Assembly (NCBI RefSeq): GCF_050920415.1
Contig: NZ_CP169309.1
Strand: one strand, 5' to 3'
Source: Escherichia coli
Lineage (GTDB): Bacteria; Pseudomonadota; Gammaproteobacteria; Enterobacterales; Enterobacteriaceae
DNA: 64,000 nt
The notes beneath the pieces were generated by a model. It had not been told where the DNA came from, searched no databases, and worked only from the letters and a program-made list of their open reading frames with translations. Positions 1 to 58,973 of the stretch are shown one piece after another; within the stretch, counting starts at the first letter, position 1; every line of letters starts with the position of its first letter. The position numbers were made by a program, and so were the translations under genes.

Positions 1-582
1 TTTCAGCAAATCTTCCCGACCACTTTCCGCCAGCCCCAGCATGGTGAAATAGGAATCCCAGTAGTAGGTTTCGCTAAAACGGCCCCCTGGAACAATGTAA
101 GACTGTGGCAGCGCCAGCAGGGAAGACCACGGAATGTGATCTTGCGGTTCGCGGGTAAGCACCGGCCACAGCTGGTCGATATGTTCTTTCAGGGAATTTT
201 GCGGGTCCGATACATACTCGCTGGAGTAGGTCTCCGGCAGCCAGAAGTGATTTTCAACAAACTTGCGCAAGTCAAAATCACGATGACGGCGCACTTTACG
301 ATAGCGGATTAAAATATCCAGCGGGTCCATTTTGGGTGCGCAGTCGGGAAAGGTTTTACTGTCGGGGAAAATTTTCGCCGACTGAACATGCTCGAACAGT
401 TCGAGATAGCGATCGGCAGGCGTCAGCGCATCAGAGGCGGGCAGCCCTTCAATCATCTCGGGTTCTGGTTCTGCCTCGATCATCTCATCCAGTTTTAATT
501 CATACGGGTCCAGTTCATAGCAGAGATCGACCTCGATCATCAGTTCGTCTGGATTAGAGTTTTGAATTTTCTGATTGAGCAT
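1..582 (-). CDS. treF: Cytoplasmic trehalase TreF, N-terminal 194 codons; gene continues beyond window start
   Basis: Reverse-strand translation from ATG at 582 reads [33 protein letters not shown]..., recognised as TreF N-terminus; no stop in window. Confidence 0.9.
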
Positions 583-986
583 AAGGATCCGACCTCCGAA
601 ATTCGTCGCTAATTATCGGGCTTTTCTTTAAGGGTAGTCATTCGCTCCGCCTGGTGGGCGACAAAGCGTGCGGTGGATCACGTTTATTAACTTGTCAAAA
701 AATATAACGCACTAATATCAATAGAATTTATAAAAATACGGATTCCTTGTTGTTTTTCATTTTCAGAACATTCAATCCTGCTCTCGCCGCAATCATGATA
801 TGCCATTCCTGCTCTGTATAATAGGCGCAGGCTATCTTATTGATAGTTTATATTCATGTAATTGATTGATTCCTATCAAAAAGCGTATTTCCCTGTTTTT
901 TATGATGGCTTTGTCTCGCAGAGACGTTTGCAGCATTCTGGAAAATTTTCTGGGTCACAATAACTCACCACCGTGAGGGAAGAATA

Positions 987-2384
987 ATGAAAATGGTCTC
1001 ACGTATTACCGCGATCGGCCTGGCTGGCGTCGCGATTTGCTATTTAGGGTTATCTGGTTATGTGTGGTACCACGATAATAAACGCAGTAAACAGGCCGAT
1101 GTTCAGGCATCTGCTGTCAGTGAAAATAATCAGGTTTTAGGTTTTCTTCGCGAAAAAGGATGCGACTATTGTCATACGCCTTCGGCAGAATTACCCGCCT
1201 ATTATTATATTCCTGGCGCGAAACAGTTGATGGATTACGACATTAAGCTTGGATATAAATCTTTTAACCTCGAGGCCGTGCGTGCGGCTCTGTTGGCAGA
1301 TAAACCCGTTTCGCAAAGCGATCTGAATAAGATTGAATGGGTGATGCAGTATGAAACTATGCCGCCAACGCGTTACACCGCGCTACACTGGGCGGGTAAG
1401 GTGAGTGATGAAGAGCGGGCGGAAATACTTGCCTGGATTGCAAAACAGCGCGCGGAATATTACGCCAGTAATGATACTGCTCCGGAGCATCGCAATGAAC
1501 CGGTGCAGCCTATTCCGCAAAAACTACCTACCGATGCGCAAAAAGTGGCGTTGGGTTTTGCGCTGTATCATGATCCCCGTTTATCGGCTGATAGCACCAT
1601 TTCATGTGCACATTGCCATGCGTTAAATGCGGGTGGCGTTGATGGCAGAAAAACGTCGATTGGTGTTGGTGGTGCCGTTGGACCGATTAACGCACCGACG
1701 GTATTTAACTCAGTATTTAACGTTGAGCAGTTCTGGGATGGTCGTGCGGCAACATTGCAGGATCAGGCGGGTGGACCGCCGTTGAACCCGATTGAAATGG
1801 CGTCGAAATCCTGGGACGAAATTATTGCTAAGCTGGAAAAAGATCCGCAGCTTAAAGCGCAGTTCCTCGAAGTCTATCCGCAAGGTTTCAGTGGCGAAAA
1901 TATTACTGATGCTATTGCTGAATTTGAGAAAACATTAATTACGCCGGATTCCCCATTTGATAAATGGTTGCGTGGAGATGAGAATGCGCTGACGGTGCAA
2001 CAGAAAAAAGGCTATCAATTATTTAAAGATAATAAATGTGCAACTTGTCATGGTGGTATTATTCTCGGCGGACGTTCTTTCGAGCCGTTGGGGCTGAAAA
2101 AAGACTTTAACTTTGGGGAAATTACGGCGGCGGATATTGGTCGTATGAATGTTACTAAAGAAGAGCGTGATAAATTGCGTCAGAAAGTACCCGGTTTACG
2201 TAACGTTGCTTTAACGGCACCGTACTTCCATCGCGGTGACGTGCCGACGCTGGACGGGGCGGTAAAACTGATGCTGCGCTATCAGGTAGGCAAAGAGCTG
2301 CCGCAGGAGGATGTGGATGATATCGTAGCTTTCCTGCACAGTCTGAACGGGGTATACACGCCGTATATGCGGGATAAACAATAA
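987..2384 (+). CDS. yhjA: Di-haem cytochrome c peroxidase YhjA (Ccp), 465 aa
   Basis: ORF track 465 aa; three CxxCH haem-binding motifs (CDYCH, CAHCH, CATCH); recognised sequence. Confidence 0.95.
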   Translation: MKMVSRITAIGLAGVAICYLGLSGYVWYHDNKRSKQADVQASAVSENNQVLGFLREKGCDYCHTPSAELPAYYYIPGAKQLMDYDIKLGYKSFNLEAVRAALLADKPVSQSDLNKIEWVMQYETMPPTRYTALHWAGKVSDEERAEILAWIAKQRAEYYASNDTAPEHRNEPVQPIPQKLPTDAQKVALGFALYHDPRLSADSTISCAHCHALNAGGVDGRKTSIGVGGAVGPINAPTVFNSVFNVEQFWDGRAATLQDQAGGPPLNPIEMASKSWDEIIAKLEKDPQLKAQFLEVYPQGFSGENITDAIAEFEKTLITPDSPFDKWLRGDENALTVQQKKGYQLFKDNKCATCHGGIILGGRSFEPLGLKKDFNFGEITAADIGRMNVTKEERDKLRQKVPGLRNVALTAPYFHRGDVPTLDGAVKLMLRYQVGKELPQEDVDDIVAFLHSLNGVYTPYMRDKQ

Positions 2385-2391
2385 TTAATTT

Positions 2392-2426
2392 GATCGCCCG
2401 AACAGGAATGTTTGGGCGATTTTTAT
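2392..2426 (+). terminator. Rho-independent terminator downstream of yhjA
   Basis: GC stem atcgcccgaac / gtttgggcgat followed by TTTTT. Confidence 0.6.
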
Positions 2427-2495
2427 TACGACAATAAAGTCTGTTTTTAATATTATCATGTTAAATGTTTATATTATAAAAAGTCGTTTTTCTGC

Positions 2496-2515
2496 TTAGG
2501 ATTTTGTTATTTAAA
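2496..2515 (+). promoter_or_regulatory. GAD box (GadE/GadX/GadW binding site) upstream of gadA
   Basis: Exact 20-mer TTAGGATTTTGTTATTTAAA about 80 bp upstream of gadA start; established consensus for gadA/gadB promoters. Confidence 0.8.
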
Positions 2516-2594
2516 TTAAGCCTGTAATGCCTTGCTTCCATTGCGGATAAATCCTACTTTTTTATTGCCTTCAAATAAATTTAAGGAGTTCGAA

Positions 2595-3995
2595 ATGGAC
2601 CAGAAGCTGTTAACGGATTTCCGCTCAGAACTACTCGATTCACGTTTTGGCGCAAAGGCCATTTCTACTATCGCGGAGTCAAAACGATTTCCGCTGCACG
2701 AAATGCGCGATGATGTCGCATTCCAGATTATCAATGACGAATTATATCTTGATGGCAACGCTCGTCAGAACCTGGCCACTTTCTGCCAGACCTGGGACGA
2801 CGAAAACGTCCATAAATTGATGGATTTGTCGATCAACAAAAACTGGATCGACAAAGAAGAATATCCGCAATCTGCAGCTATCGACCTGCGTTGCGTAAAT
2901 ATGGTTGCTGACTTGTGGCATGCGCCTGCGCCGAAAAATGGTCAGGCCGTTGGCACCAACACCATTGGCTCTTCCGAGGCCTGTATGCTCGGCGGGATGG
3001 CGATGAAATGGCGTTGGCGCAAGCGTATGGAAGCCGCAGGCAAGCCAACGGATAAACCTAATCTGGTGTGCGGCCCGGTACAAATCTGCTGGCATAAATT
3101 CGCCCGTTACTGGGATGTGGAGCTGCGTGAAATCCCTATGCGTCCCGGTCAGTTGTTTATGGATCCGAAACGCATGATTGAAGCCTGCGACGAAAACACC
3201 ATCGGCGTGGTGCCGACTTTCGGTGTGACCTACACCGGTAACTATGAATTCCCGCAACCGCTGCACGATGCACTGGATAAATTCCAGGCCGACACCGGTA
3301 TCGACATCGACATGCACATCGACGCCGCCAGCGGTGGCTTCCTGGCACCGTTCGTCGCCCCGGATATCGTCTGGGACTTCCGCCTGCCTCGTGTGAAATC
3401 GATCAGTGCTTCAGGCCATAAATTCGGTCTGGCTCCGCTGGGCTGCGGCTGGGTTATCTGGCGTGATGAAGAAGCGCTGCCGCAGGAACTGGTGTTCAAC
3501 GTTGACTACCTCGGTGGTCAGATTGGGACTTTCGCCATCAACTTCTCCCGTCCGGCGGGCCAGGTGATTGCACAATACTATGAGTTTCTGCGCCTCGGTC
3601 GTGAAGGCTATACCAAAGTACAGAACGCTTCCTACCAGGTTGCCGCTTATCTGGCGGATGAAATCGCCAAACTGGGGCCGTATGAGTTCATCTGTACCGG
3701 TCGCCCGGACGAAGGCATCCCGGCGGTTTGCTTCAAACTGAAAGATGGTGAAGACCCGGGATACACCCTCTACGACCTCTCTGAACGTCTGCGCCTGCGC
3801 GGCTGGCAGGTTCCGGCCTTCACCCTCGGCGGTGAAGCGACCGATATCGTGGTGATGCGCATTATGTGCCGTCGCGGCTTCGAAATGGACTTTGCTGAAC
3901 TGTTACTGGAAGACTACAAAGCCTCCCTGAAATACCTCAGCGATCACCCGAAACTGCAGGGTATAGCCCAGCAGAACAGCTTTAAACATACCTAA
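2595..3995 (+). CDS. gadA: Glutamate decarboxylase alpha, 466 aa
   Basis: [19 protein letters not shown]... recognised; AAGGAG RBS at 2583-2588; ORF-track ORF begins 21 codons upstream at 2532 but the RBS-backed ATG is 2595. Confidence 0.96.
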
Positions 3996-4363: not shown

Positions 4364-5188
4364 ATGCAATCACTACATGGTAATTGTCTAATTGCGTACG
4401 CAAGACATAAATATATTCTCACCATGGTTAATGGTGAATATCGCTATTTTAATGGCGGTGAACTGGTTTTTGCGGATGCAAGTCAAATTCAAGTGGATAA
4501 GTGTGTCGAGAATTTTGTATTAGTTTCAAGGGACACGCTTTCATTATTTCTCCCGATGCTCAAGGAGGAGGCATTAAATCTTCATGCACATAAAAAAGTT
4601 CCTTCGTTACTCGTTCATCACTGTACCAGAGATATTCCTGTTTTTCAGGAGGTTGCGCAACTATCGCAGAATAAGAATCTGCGCTATGCAGAAATGCTCC
4701 GTAAAAGAGCATTAATCTTTGCGTTGTTATCTGTTTTCCTGGAGGACGAGCAGTTTATACCGCTGCTTCTGAACGTTTTGCAACCGAACATGCGAACACG
4801 AGTTTGTACGGTCATCAATAATAATATCGCCCATGAGTGGACATTAGCCCAAATCGCCAGCGAGCTGTTGATGAGTTCAAGCCTGTTAAAGAAAAAATTG
4901 CGCGAAGAAGGTACGTCATATTCACAGTTGCTTACTGAGTGTAGAATGCAACGTGCTTTGCAACTTATTGTTATACATGGTTTTTCAATTAAGCGAGTTG
5001 CAGTGTCCTGTGGTTATCACAGCGTGTCGTATTTCATTTACGTTTTTCGAAATTATTATGGGATGACGCCCACAGAGTATCAGGAGCGATCAGCACAAGA
5101 ATTGCCGAACCGTGACTCGGTGGCAAGTATTGTTGCGCAAGGGAATTTTTACGGTACTAACTATTCTGCGGAAGAAATAAGATTATAG
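4364..5188 (+). CDS. gadX: AraC-family acid-resistance regulator GadX, 274 aa
   Basis: ORF track 274 aa, recognised sequence; AraC-type HTH C-terminus. Confidence 0.95.
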   Translation: MQSLHGNCLIAYARHKYILTMVNGEYRYFNGGELVFADASQIQVDKCVENFVLVSRDTLSLFLPMLKEEALNLHAHKKVPSLLVHHCTRDIPVFQEVAQLSQNKNLRYAEMLRKRALIFALLSVFLEDEQFIPLLLNVLQPNMRTRVCTVINNNIAHEWTLAQIASELLMSSSLLKKKLREEGTSYSQLLTECRMQRALQLIVIHGFSIKRVAVSCGYHSVSYFIYVFRNYYGMTPTEYQERSAQELPNRDSVASIVAQGNFYGTNYSAEEIRL

Positions 5189-55087: not shown

Positions 55088-55753
55088 TTAACTCGCCTGC
55101 AAAGCGTTGATTTCGGATTTATCTGCCAGTCTTTTCAACAGCATATTGAGTAATACGCCATACATTGGCAGGAAGAAAACGATACTGATTAACACTTTGA
55201 AACAGTAATCGACCAGCGCGATTTCCATCCAGTGTTCGGCCATAAAGGCATCTGGGCTGCGCCAGAAGGCAATGAAGAAGAAGGCCAGCGTGTCGCTGAC
55301 GTTACCAAACAGGGTGGAAGCCGTCGGTGCCAGCCACCAGCGACGACTCTGACGCAGGCGGTTAAAAACGTGCACGTCGAGGATTTGCCCCAGCGCGTAG
55401 GCCATGAAACTGGCGGTGGCGATACGGGCGACAAACAGGTTGAAGTGGGCGAGCGCGCCGAATCCCTGCCAGGAACCCATATAGAACAGCGACGAGATGA
55501 CGTAGGAGATCAGTAACGCCGGGATCATCACCGCAAAGATGATACGACGGGCCAGCGGTGCGCCAAAAATACGCACAGTCAGGTCGGTAGCAAGGAAAAT
55601 AAACGGAAAGCTAAACGCGCCCCAGGTGGTATGGAAACCAAAAATGGATACGGGAAGCTGAACCAGATAGTTACTGGAGGTGATCACCAACAGATGAAAT
55701 AACGATAACCAGAACAACGCCTTATAGCGTTGAGTTTGCGAGAAAACGTTCAT
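55088..55753 (-). CDS. yhhQ: Queuosine-precursor transporter YhhQ, 221 aa
   Basis: ORF track 221 aa; recognised. Confidence 0.93.
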   Translation of the reverse strand: MNVFSQTQRYKALFWLSLFHLLVITSSNYLVQLPVSIFGFHTTWGAFSFPFIFLATDLTVRIFGAPLARRIIFAVMIPALLISYVISSLFYMGSWQGFGALAHFNLFVARIATASFMAYALGQILDVHVFNRLRQSRRWWLAPTASTLFGNVSDTLAFFFIAFWRSPDAFMAEHWMEIALVDYCFKVLISIVFFLPMYGVLLNMLLKRLADKSEINALQAS

Positions 55754-55973
55754 ATTGTACCTTTTTGATTAACCATTGGGGTGAGGGAACCCAATACGTA
55801 CGACACGTCTGTTACCTTAACATAATAACGTGCTGACCCTTTTTTCGAGCCGCCGCATGATACTGCTTTACGTTGACAATGCAATGGTTAATTTTCACGC
55901 AATCGTTAACCTGGTTTGCTTACGGACTCACAGGGCGTAAACTAGCGCCGTTTTTTTATGTGATGAGAAGAAA

Positions 55974-56219
55974 ATGACCGATCTCTTTTCCAGCCCTGAC
56001 CACACACTCGACGCACTTGGCCTGCGCTGCCCGGAACCAGTAATGATGGTGCGCAAAACTGTGCGCAATATGCAGCCAGGTGAAACGTTGCTGATTATTG
56101 CTGACGATCCGGCGACGACACGCGATATTCCTGGGTTTTGTACCTTTATGGAACACGAACTGGTTGCGAAAGAGACCGATGGACTGCCTTATCGTTATTT
56201 GATTCGCAAATCGGGGTAA
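55974..56219 (+). CDS. tusA: Sulfur carrier protein TusA, 81 aa
   Basis: ORF track 81 aa; CPEP active-site motif. Confidence 0.96.
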
Positions 56220-56273
56220 GGTGGATCAGGCTAGCGGACCGATCGCGCTCAATTTTGCGGCTTGCAACCGGTT

Positions 56274-56410
56274 TGTAGGACGGATAAAACGTTCAAGCTG
56301 CATCTGGCGATACGGTGCACAATGCCTGATGCGACGCTGTCGCGTCTTATCATGCCTACGAGTTCGATGCCCTGTGTAGGCCAGATAAGGCGTTTACGCC
56401 GCATCCGGCA
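56274..56410. repeat. Cluster of three REP elements (BIME) between tusA and zntA
   Basis: gtaggacggataaaacg..., gcctgatgcgacgctgtcgcgtcttatcatgcctac, gtaggccagataaggcgtttacgccgcatccggca. Confidence 0.7.
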
Positions 56411-56433
56411 CGCAAACGTAATGGAATGCACAA

Positions 56434-56742
56434 ATGGATTATTTAATTCCAGTTTGTCTGGTATTGCTGGGATTGCTCGCGATCTTCACCCCCAATTGGC
56501 TGATCCCTGTTTTTATCGTCGTGGGGGGATGGCTGGGGGTACTTGCCTGGGGTTGGCTCTGGCTAATGATTTTTTTACCTTTACTTAACGGTGTCGGGCT
56601 TGCTTATGCCCTGTGGTTGATGTTCAAAAGGCCATCCATAGCATCCCGCTTGGTTGCTGCATGCTGTGTTATCTCCGTCATTCTGATGTTAGCGCTTTAT
56701 TATGCTTTCCTGACTATGCCGCCGTTCCCGCCTCAGCACTAA
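56434..56742 (+). CDS. Hypothetical small membrane protein, 102 aa (candidate; unverified)
   Basis: ORF with three hydrophobic segments, Trp-rich; weak RBS; between the REP cluster and the zntA 3' end. Confidence 0.3.
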   Translation: MDYLIPVCLVLLGLLAIFTPNWLIPVFIVVGGWLGVLAWGWLWLMIFLPLLNGVGLAYALWLMFKRPSIASRLVAACCVISVILMLALYYAFLTMPPFPPQH

Positions 56743-56774
56743 GCCTGATAGCCAGAGGCTATCAGGCAACACTT

Positions 56775-58973
56775 TTACTTCCTGCGCAACAATCTTAACG
56801 CATTCGCTGTCACCAGCACCGTCGCACCCGTATCTGCCAGCACCGCCAGCCATAGTCCGGTCATCCCTAACAGCGTTGTGACGAGGAAGATCCCTTTCAG
56901 CCCCAGCGCAATGGTGATGTTCTGGCGGATATTGGCGTGAGTGGCGCGTGCCAGTTCAATCATCTGCGCCAGGCCGCGCAGGTGGTTATGGGTTAATGCT
57001 GCGTCGGCGGTTTCCAGCGCCACATCTGTGCCACTGCCCATTGCAATCCCTATGGCGGCAGCTTTCATGGCGGGCGCGTCGTTAATACCGTCACCGACCA
57101 TCGCCAGAGGCGCATGTTGATTCAGCTCGGTCACCGCTTTGACTTTATCTTCTGGTAATAGGCCCGCTTTAAATTCCAGCCCCAGTTCACCGGCGATTGC
57201 CGCCGCTGCGCGTGGATTATCGCCAGTGAGGATCACTCCTTTGACGCCCAGGGCGCTCAGTTCGCTGATGGCAGTTGCGGCGTCGGCGCGCAGGGTATCC
57301 TGCAATGCAATGACACCCAGCACTTCATCGTTACGCACCACCAGTACTACCGTTTGCCCGGCGCTTTCCAGTTCGTTAATTAAACCAGCAAATGCAACAA
57401 CCGGATGTTTTCCGGCAGCGCATATCAACACGCGCTCGCCGTTAATCAGTGCTTCAATACCAGACCCGACCAGCGCCCGCTGTGATTCGGCGGCAGGAAT
57501 GGTTAGCGCAGCGACCTGTGCTTCACGCACAATGGCCTGCGCCAGTGGATGCGTCGCGCCTTGTTCTACCGCCGCTGCCAGCGACAGCAGTTCAGATTCA
57601 CTAATCCCCGTTGCCGGATGAATCGCGGTAACGCGCGGTTTACCGACGGTCAGCGTACCGGTTTTATCAAACGCCACCTGGGTAACACGACCTAGTTGTT
57701 CCAGCGCCGCACCGCCTTTAATCAACGCCCCACGACGCGCTGCTGCCGCCAGCCCGGAGGTAATCGCCGCAGGTGTTGAGATCACCAGCGCACACGGGCA
57801 GCCAATCAGCAGCAGCGTCAGCCCTTTATAAATCCACTCTTGCCAGCTGGCGGCAAACAGCAGCGGCGGCACCAGAGTTACCAGCAGAGCGACCGCCATA
57901 ATCGCTGGCGTGTAAATACGGCTGAAACGGTCGATAAACCGCTCAATCGGCGCGCGGCGCTCTTCGGCTTCTTCGATCAGTTTCAGAATGCGGTCAATGG
58001 CGCTGGCACCCGGTTCTGACAACACTTCCAGGGTAACCAGACGGTCTACGCTGGTGGCGCCTGCAGGAACTTTATCACCCGTCGCGCGCTCCACCGGAAT
58101 GGATTCGCCGGTCAGGGCGCTTTCATCAAAACTGGCAAAGGGCGAGAGCAGTTTACCGTCGGCAGGTAAACGCCCACCTGCCGCAACTTCGATAACATCG
58201 CCCGGACGCAGGCTGTTAATTGCTACCTCTTCACGCTTGCCATTACGCAGGCGCGTGGCGGTTTCCGGTTTCAGCGCCATTAACGCGCTGACCCCTTGAC
58301 GTGCGCGGCTGGCGGCCCAGCCTTCCAGTCGTTCACCAATCAAAAATAGCAGCAACACCATCGCAGCTTCGGCGGTTGCGCCAATAAACAGCGCGCCAAT
58401 GGCGGCTACGCTCATTAACGTTTCAATGGCGAAGTAGCTGCCAGATTTGATCAGTCGTAATGCCTGGCGCGCAATCGGGTACAGCCCAACCAGCGTGGTC
58501 GCGATAAACGCCAGTTGCCCGAACGGATGATTAAACTGCTCCAGACCCCAGCTGATTGCCATCAACACGATTAGCGTAATCAGCGGCAGATTCTCTTTCA
58601 GGCGTGATTCTTGTTGTTCGTCGGCGGACTGTTCATCGCGCAGGGAATAGCCCGCTTTTTGCACCGCAGATTCAACCTGGGCACGGATGTCATTGTCGGC
58701 ATCCACCACCAGTTTTTCGGTGGCGAACAACACCTGCACCTGATTCACGCCTGCAAGCTGGCGCACGGCATTTTCTACCTTGCGCGCACAGGCGGCGCAG
58801 TCCATGCCGCTGACTTTCCAGCTATAGCGGGTGCCGGAGACGTTTTCAGAGAGCGTTGGCGTGCTGGAACATGCGCCGTCGCAGCAACAGTCGTTGGCGT
58901 TCTGAACCGTGGTTAGCGGTTTGAACGCGGCAAATTGAGGGGCTTTCTTGCCGTGATTGTCAGGAGTCGACAT
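56775..58973 (-). CDS. zntA: Zn/Cd/Pb-exporting P-type ATPase ZntA, 732 aa
   Basis: ORF track 732 aa; CPC and DKTGT motifs, N-terminal GMDCAAC metal-binding motif. Confidence 0.96.
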   Translation of the reverse strand: MSTPDNHGKKAPQFAAFKPLTTVQNANDCCCDGACSSTPTLSENVSGTRYSWKVSGMDCAACARKVENAVRQLAGVNQVQVLFATEKLVVDADNDIRAQVESAVQKAGYSLRDEQSADEQQESRLKENLPLITLIVLMAISWGLEQFNHPFGQLAFIATTLVGLYPIARQALRLIKSGSYFAIETLMSVAAIGALFIGATAEAAMVLLLFLIGERLEGWAASRARQGVSALMALKPETATRLRNGKREEVAINSLRPGDVIEVAAGGRLPADGKLLSPFASFDESALTGESIPVERATGDKVPAGATSVDRLVTLEVLSEPGASAIDRILKLIEEAEERRAPIERFIDRFSRIYTPAIMAVALLVTLVPPLLFAASWQEWIYKGLTLLLIGCPCALVISTPAAITSGLAAAARRGALIKGGAALEQLGRVTQVAFDKTGTLTVGKPRVTAIHPATGISESELLSLAAAVEQGATHPLAQAIVREAQVAALTIPAAESQRALVGSGIEALINGERVLICAAGKHPVVAFAGLINELESAGQTVVLVVRNDEVLGVIALQDTLRADAATAISELSALGVKGVILTGDNPRAAAAIAGELGLEFKAGLLPEDKVKAVTELNQHAPLAMVGDGINDAPAMKAAAIGIAMGSGTDVALETADAALTHNHLRGLAQMIELARATHANIRQNITIALGLKGIFLVTTLLGMTGLWLAVLADTGATVLVTANALRLLRRK

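Follow-up and report, generated by a model that had tools for sequence, protein, structure and literature searches.

A 102-codon open reading frame between tusA and zntA of Escherichia coli, here called X, is probably (at a probability of about 0.7) a real gene under weak constraint, whose product is a small polytopic inner-membrane protein, and sequence comparisons suggest a dispensable accessory protein that was ancestrally linked to tusA. The frame lies in the window, i.e. the whole 64,000-nt stretch of DNA that was analysed. An earlier note, made from the letters of the window, had proposed a candidate small membrane protein at this position and had left open whether the frame is unannotated, strain-specific or non-coding; the membrane-protein reading is supported by both the substitution pattern of X and homologues in other genera. 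The features of the locus are as follows.

55974..56219, + strand: tusA (sulfur carrier), upstream of and co-oriented with X, constant neighbour of X in every genus
56237..56275, + strand: tusA-proximal hairpin region, strong in K-12, weakened by a 7-nt insertion in the window
56275..56309, no strand: REP unit a, degenerate, inverted orientation, weak fold (-7.2)
56324..56359, no strand: REP unit b, forward orientation, stem of -14.8 kcal/mol
56376..56410, no strand: REP unit c, inverted orientation, stem of -14.7 kcal/mol, ending 9 nt before the SD-like motif
56420..56429, + strand: weak SD-like motif AATGGAATGC, counterpart of AAAGGAA(T/G)GC-N5-ATG in other genera
56434..56742, + strand: X, encoding a 102-aa very hydrophobic protein with four predicted TM helices (WP_000385061.1)
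56440..56493, + strand: tandem copy 1, codons 3-20, TM1, 30/54 nt identical to copy 2
56497..56550, + strand: tandem copy 2, codons 22-39, TM2, 30/54 nt identical to copy 1
56560..56739, + strand: conserved core, codons 43-102, comprising TM3, the loop KRPSxxSR, TM4 and the tail, with cross-genus homology
56743..56767, no strand: perfect 11-bp inverted repeat (-20.6 kcal/mol) between the stop codons of X and zntA
56775..58973, - strand: zntA, convergent downstream neighbour

X is an annotated, hydrophobic open reading frame

X runs on the + strand from an ATG at 56434 to a TAA that ends at 56742. The Trp-rich character ascribed to the 102-aa product is evident from its composition, with 22 Leu, 6 Trp (5.9%) and a GRAVY score of 1.47, and the sole charged or ionisable residues are D2, K65, R66, R72 and H102. 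The codon usage of X is poor: its CAI of 0.563 is lower than in any of the window's 25 long ORFs (mean 0.706, minimum 0.591), and the rare codons that had been remarked on are present, including CTA, AGG and four CTT. The strand opposite X contains no long ORF. In another frame of the + strand, a 108-codon ORF (56262-56588) overlaps X, remains open across its N-terminal half, and has a notable ATG at 56421.

X is already in public annotation as a hypothetical protein, so that the option of an unannotated gene falls away. Specifically, RefSeq carries it as the PGAP hypothetical protein WP_000385061.1 in the tusA–zntA interval of a genome that is 100% identical over the stretch, the same PGAP call was found in every genome inspected, and the 309-bp coding sequence is intact and annotated in SMS-3-5, an O145 strain, GF4-3, STN0717-11 and strain 300444. 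Literature searches with the accessions and with the tusA/zntA context returned nothing relevant to X.

X has been deleted at least twice within E. coli

We surveyed the locus in 5,426 complete E. coli genomes, of which 5,419 fall into three classes.

X present: 317 genomes, always one chromosomal copy
K-12-type junction: 4,572 genomes
NC101-type junction: 530 genomes

X is lacking from ~94% of E. coli, K-12 included, and never occurs on plasmids in the complete genomes; of the options that had been left open, strain specificity therefore holds, in the sense that X is strain-variable and absent from K-12 by deletion. The spacing of zntA and tusA, which is 555 bp in the window, is merely 101 bp in K-12, in agreement with the remark that K-12 is not known to have an annotated gene here. 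In the alignment with K-12, the tusA-proximal hairpin is kept and is followed by the zntA stop region, while the REPs, X and the 56743-56767 hairpin are gone; the 3′ end of the 56237-56275 hairpin region marks the start of the K-12-type deletion. In NC101 (phylogroup B2), the three REPs and one arm of the 56743-56767 hairpin are kept and X is gone. The endpoints of the two junctions differ, indicating that at least two independent deletions have occurred.

Several small differences surround the hairpin after tusA. The 7-nt insertion relative to K-12 is GCTTGCA, and the C-terminus of TusA (56205-56219) reads ...IRKSG in the window versus ...IRKGG in K-12; E. albertii has both the insertion and the ...IRKSG end. 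K-12 carries an extra palindrome, CCCTCTCCCC/GGGGCGAGGGG, placed between tusA and the hairpin of the 56237-56275 type.

Orthologues and distant homologues of X follow tusA

A GTDB scan of one genome per species showed that E. albertii, E. whittamii, two cryptic-clade Escherichia and a divergent E. coli carry an intact 102-codon orthologue in the same position between tusA and zntA. Protein searches added E. marmotae (an orthologue at the protein level only) and other cryptic clades, and gave no match above 40% identity beyond the genus Escherichia. When 1.84 billion representative proteins were searched exhaustively with the Escherichia profile (HMMER), only nine matches came up, among which P0039 and P0042 (83 and 84 aa) are distant full-length homologues, and a second search added the homologue P0045. 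All three are encoded 36-49 bp after tusA on the same strand, in the gene order yhhS-dcrB-yhhQ-tusA-X. These short homologues (81–86 aa) belong to Huaxiibacter chinensis, Lelliottia sp. WAP21 and a contig that has a TusA grouping with Superficieibacter; a search of Leclercia and Superficieibacter genomes for a remnant of X after tusA found none.

X shares 31-39% identity with the 81-86-aa homologues. Alignment of the Escherichia and non-Escherichia families by hhalign gives a probability of 98.3% (E = 1.7e-14) over residues 43-102 (60 columns), and cross-genus conservation is highest at P25, G32-W33, N52-G53-x-G55, R72, S81 and M85. In every genus where X was found, the gene upstream of it is a co-oriented tusA. 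X thus seems to define an old, patchily retained, tusA-linked family that is in no curated library. Together, the same-locus orthologues in Escherichia and the tusA-linked homologues in other genera indicate that X is ancestral and was lost in K-12, not gained in the window strain.

The interval between tusA and zntA carries other genes in some of these genomes. Between X and zntA, a further accessory gene, encoding ~162-165 aa, is present in E. albertii, Escherichia sp. MOD1-EC7003, E. coli GF4-3 and 6EVA, and the Superficieibacter-like contig. Its copies, all on the - strand and outside the window, are at 4369-4866 of locus L005, 4378-4872 of L006, 688-1176 of L008 and 1079-1573 of L026. The gene is 65% identical across genera and is kept in 2/5,426 E. 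coli; PGAP names the product a DUF2004 domain protein, and a Pfam scan gave no match at E <= 0.1. In Huaxiibacter, Lelliottia sp. and Leclercia (loci L009, L010, L012, L013 and L015-L020), and not in Escherichia, zntA is separated from tusA (or tusA-X) by a dctPQM TRAP transporter operon; its presence and absence between genera suggest that, across Enterobacteriaceae, the tusA–zntA interval is a hotspot where genes come and go. zntA appears to adjoin X in this lineage only through the loss of intervening genes.

Purifying selection is detectable in the C-terminal half of X

We compared ten alleles, six from E. coli (the window, locus L004, SMS-3-5, O145 95-3192, GF4-3 and STN0717-11) and one each from E. 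albertii, E. whittamii and two cryptic-clade Escherichia. The frame is intact and free of indels in 10/10 alleles, which represent six Escherichia lineages and up to 10% nucleotide divergence, unlike the neighbouring intergenic DNA, which is rich in indels. Variable sites are distributed over the three codon positions as 23/16/39 (chi-square p = 0.005). Counted at the minimum, the changes comprise 38 synonymous and 43 nonsynonymous ones, a synonymous share above the 0.286 expected under neutrality (binomial p = 3.7e-4). The comparison that the earlier note had suggested, of frame conservation and synonymous versus nonsynonymous change among relatives, thus comes out in favour of coding.

The mean dN/dS of the X frame over the six Escherichia lineages is 0.36, compared with 0.7-1.6 for four control frames. 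One antisense frame gives 0.38, which is the expected artefact of shared third positions; a reading of the antisense strand, which has no long ORF here, was rejected. The signal is unevenly distributed within X. Codons 47-102 show a synonymous excess at p = 1.7e-4 and a dN/dS of 0.23, while no departure from neutrality is seen in codons 1-46 (p = 0.17, dN/dS 0.59), and the conserved core of codons 43-102 appears to be the sole part under clear purifying selection. At the same loci, dN/dS is 0.040 for tusA, 0.044 for zntA and 0.015 for yhhQ, so that the constraint on X is ~10x weaker than that on tusA or zntA. The caution that had been urged about X is therefore warranted by its weak constraint and by its N-terminal half, which cannot be told from neutral sequence.

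The main rival to a functional gene is a relic, once real (or still so elsewhere), that is drifting to loss in Escherichia and whose frame is open for lack of time. The dN/dS values of the whole of X and of its N-terminal half would suit such a relic, as would the absence of X from ~94% of E. coli through at least two independent deletions, the retention of the neighbouring DUF2004-like gene in so few genomes, the weak SD and the low CAI. The survival of the open frame by chance is just mildly improbable, the probability of no stop after 76 random substitutions in X being 0.07, and frameshifted or truncated database alleles are known (P0023, P0026, P0027, P0030, P0035 and P0038). However, the C-terminal half has a significant synonymous excess, all ten alleles are free of indels next to indel-rich intergenic DNA, and the commonest two intact alleles are represented by 410 and at least 1,000 contigs, versus 1-12 contigs for each frameshifted allele. 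We consider a functionless relic unlikely, and a weakly constrained functional gene the better reading.

Four of the frameshifted alleles (P0023, P0026, P0027 and P0030, beginning MECTNGLFNSS...) start in the frame of the ATG at 56421 and shift back into the conserved C-terminal half of X. In E. albertii, the type-strain allele (L005 4001-4309) has GEPW at residues 40-43, where all others have GWLW, and some entries are annotated from M45 only (58 aa, P0031) or cut short by a frameshift (P0044); these alleles suggest decay of the N-terminal half in E. albertii. The Huaxiibacter-type pair shows no synonymous excess, with 6 synonymous-only versus 14 amino-acid-changing codons, and has a C-terminal frameshift.

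We also weighed the possibility that the region is non-coding and conserved at the RNA level, as a tusA 3′ UTR, an antisense to the zntA terminator region or a REP-associated RNA, in which case the ORF would be accidental. The site lies between convergent genes, beside REPs and a strong hairpin, and the dS of X is 0.21, about half of that of tusA (0.42) and zntA (0.44) in the same genomes (loci L003-L007), which could mean constraint on silent sites; recombination history or small-sample noise are other possible causes of the low value. Against this reading, variation gathers at the third positions of the X frame, the similarity across genera is at the protein level, with homologues after tusA elsewhere, the opposite strand is devoid of long ORFs, and an Rfam scan finds no family inside X except the edge of a REP-derived match. 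We regard a non-coding origin as very improbable and discard that option of the earlier note.

X is predicted to form four helices, the first of which arose by duplication

In an AlphaFold model based on the family alignment, helices span residues 4-18, 21-39, 41-65 and 69-94 (mean pLDDT 78, pTM 0.63). The earlier expectation of membrane helices is thus borne out at the level of prediction, but their number is four in the model, not about three.

The first two helices are encoded by the two tandem copies. Their 30 identical nucleotides exceed the expectation from shuffled codons (15.8 +/- 3.3; 0/5,000 shuffles reached 30, P < 0.0002), and the second-best in-frame offset gives 24 identical nucleotides. 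Furthermore, ~19 N-terminal residues of Escherichia X are absent from the homologues of other genera. Taken together, the identity of the copies and the residues missing elsewhere indicate that a 57-nt segment encoding the first helix was duplicated in tandem in Escherichia.

K65, R66 and R72 form the sole basic cluster of X and lie in the loop between TM3 and TM4, as expected for a cytoplasmic loop under the positive-inside rule. The N-terminus is MK or MR in the three-helix homologues and MD in the four-helix Escherichia form. The positive-inside rule accordingly predicts an ancestral N-in/C-out topology and an N-out/C-out topology in Escherichia. C78 is the only semi-conserved cysteine, being Ser in many Escherichia alleles, and no cysteine is invariant in the family.

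REP elements and a weak SD-like motif precede X

The three REP elements that had been noted upstream of X were mapped to units a, b and c. These ~35-nt imperfect palindromes fit the REP consensus and alternate as inverted/forward/inverted, which is the arrangement of a REP/BIME cluster. The Rfam family naRNA4 (REP-derived) matches 56278-56356 and 56379-56413 with E = 2.5e-8 and 5e-4, below the gathering score, and the REP part has multi-copy matches in >5,300 genomes.

The RBS had been described as weak, and the duplex of AATGGAATGC with the anti-SD is indeed worth -3.3 kcal/mol, compared with -9.5 kcal/mol for zntA. In Escherichia, AATGGAATGC-N4-ATG comes directly after the last REP, while the other genera have AAAGGAA(T/G)GC-N5-ATG in common, and their tusA-X pair is free of REPs and has a spacer of 36-49 bp. 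The short RBS-bearing spacer of the other genera, combined with the position of the Escherichia SD right after the last REP, suggests that the REPs were inserted into a former operon spacer.

Downstream, X converges on the 3′ end of zntA as had been stated, with a gap of 32 bp that holds the 56743-56767 hairpin; this hairpin is probably a shared terminator or an RNA-stabilising hairpin. Upstream of tusA, within the yhhQ-tusA divergent intergenic region, a terminator-like hairpin at 55934-55949 (+ strand) consists of GGCGTAAACTAGCGCC then GTTTTTTTAT, ~25 nt before the tusA start codon; an attenuator or leader function is possible, as is a coincidental match. A scan of both strands of 55700-56900 for sigma-70-like promoters found none, not even for tusA, so that the scan is uninformative on the transcription of X.

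Known families do not account for X

Scans of X and its homologues against Pfam, NCBIfam, PHROGs and PADLOC yielded nothing significant, a profile search against PDB sequences gave none below E = 1, and fold searches with the X model returned only non-significant or generic helical matches.

The only recurrent weak signal points to subunit F of Mrp-type cation/proton antiporters, of which X would be a diverged MrpF/MnhF-like member. NCBIfam NF009243 matches residues 45-91 at E = 0.0069, 13 of the 17 alignment members match the same model, the top PDB sequence match is 6u8y_B, and the loop F-[KR]-x-P-[ST]-x-x-[SD]-R-L-V-A is similar. However, the NF009243 score of 17.1 bits falls far short of the curated cut-off (95), the PDB match has an E-value of 1.3, the Pfam model MrpF_PhaF is matched neither by X at E <= 10 nor by the 17 members at E <= 1, and the distant homologues P0039, P0042, P0045 and P0058 go unmatched even at E <= 10. 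In addition, the genomic context lacks an mrp/mnh/pha operon, the neighbours being tusA, zntA, dctPQM or the DUF2004-like gene, and fold searches give merely generic helical arrays. Membership of MrpF/MnhF is effectively refuted by score, Pfam, distant homologues and context.

It is equally hard to credit X as a hydrophobic type I toxin of a toxin-antitoxin pair or as a phage- or defence-related element: although X is small, very hydrophobic, strain-variable and, by predicted signals, poorly translated, its 102 aa and four helices exceed typical type I toxins, it occupies a fixed syntenic chromosomal locus in one copy per genome and is never plasmid-borne, PADLOC gives no match and PHROGs nothing significant, and no antisense promoter or repeat structure was seen, with no promoter-like site on either strand of 55700-56900.

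Proposed history and function of X

Our reading of X as a weakly constrained accessory gene suggests the following history. Ancestral X would have encoded ~83 aa with three TM helices, 36-49 bp after tusA on the same strand, and given this spacing it was most likely transcribed together with tusA, as the second gene. In Escherichia, the 57-nt tandem duplication would have added a fourth, N-terminal helix and thereby placed the N-terminus outside, with the single cytoplasmic loop marked by K65/R66/R72. Three REPs would have entered between tusA and the RBS of X, and the SD would have weakened from AAGGA to ATGGA; with both changes, expression of X is probably low and reliant on read-through from tusA. 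X itself would be dispensable. The independent deletions have cleared it from most E. coli, and in the surviving copies detectable purifying selection appears confined to the C-terminal TM3-loop-TM4 core.

By analogy with known small membrane proteins, X would, if it acts at all, most probably work as a non-enzymatic accessory subunit, binding a larger membrane or membrane-associated partner and modulating it through the conserved helix pair and the short cytoplasmic loop. TusA is the only candidate partner with consistent genomic linkage, a lead that we infer from gene order. A more specific proposal is that X is a dedicated membrane partner of TusA, whose KRPSxxSR loop and TM3-TM4 would tether or couple sulfur relay to the inner membrane, e.g. 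linking it to the transport or delivery of sulfur compounds, and that the pair is an ancestral enterobacterial module that the majority of lineages have since lost, K-12 among them. The one piece of evidence for this proposal is the invariant tusA-X order in at least three genera, and we consider it improbable.

The deletion of an ancestral Escherichia gene from K-12 would explain why a plausible gene is found where K-12 has none, and X would define a tiny uncurated family that is always linked to tusA. The locus may also record stepwise decay at a single site, with REPs in an operon spacer, a weaker RBS, a helix duplication predicted to flip the N-terminal topology, and at least two independent deletions. 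If X is functional, its linkage to TusA is a lead; otherwise X is an ordinary accessory hypothetical gene.

Comparison with known systems

The MrpF/MnhF subunit (NF009243; 6u8y_B) resembles X in its similar length, its helix-loop-helix arrangement and its similar basic loop motif, but differs from it in that scores are far under thresholds, Pfam and distant homologues lend no support, and the genomic context is wrong. In YeeE/YeeD (TsuA/TsuB) and other pairings of a TusA-family protein with a membrane protein, as in tusA-X, the TusA-family gene is directly beside a co-oriented membrane-protein gene. YeeE, however, is a ~350-aa transporter of the Sulf_transp family with essential cysteines, whereas X and its homologues have 81-102 aa, no Pfam (Sulf_transp) match and no invariant Cys. 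Membership of X in YeeE/YedE (Sulf_transp) was rejected on domain, size and cysteines, the adjacency to TusA being shared.

REP/BIME elements are known inside operons, e.g. between malE and malF, where they stabilise the mRNA on their upstream side and reduce expression of the gene that follows. The cluster described here resembles malE–malF in that REP palindromes lie between two co-oriented genes (tusA and X), and differs in that co-transcription of tusA and X is a deduction from gene spacing and that the tusA-X pairs of other genera have short, REP-free spacers.

KdpF, AcrZ, CydX and MgtS are small inner-membrane accessory proteins, mostly of a single helix and <50 aa. X differs from them in having three or four helices and no sequence homology to any of them. 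It resembles them in its small size, in its nearly all-hydrophobic helices without enzymatic motifs, in its weak constraint outside the helix-packing core, and in being probably dispensable under laboratory-like conditions.
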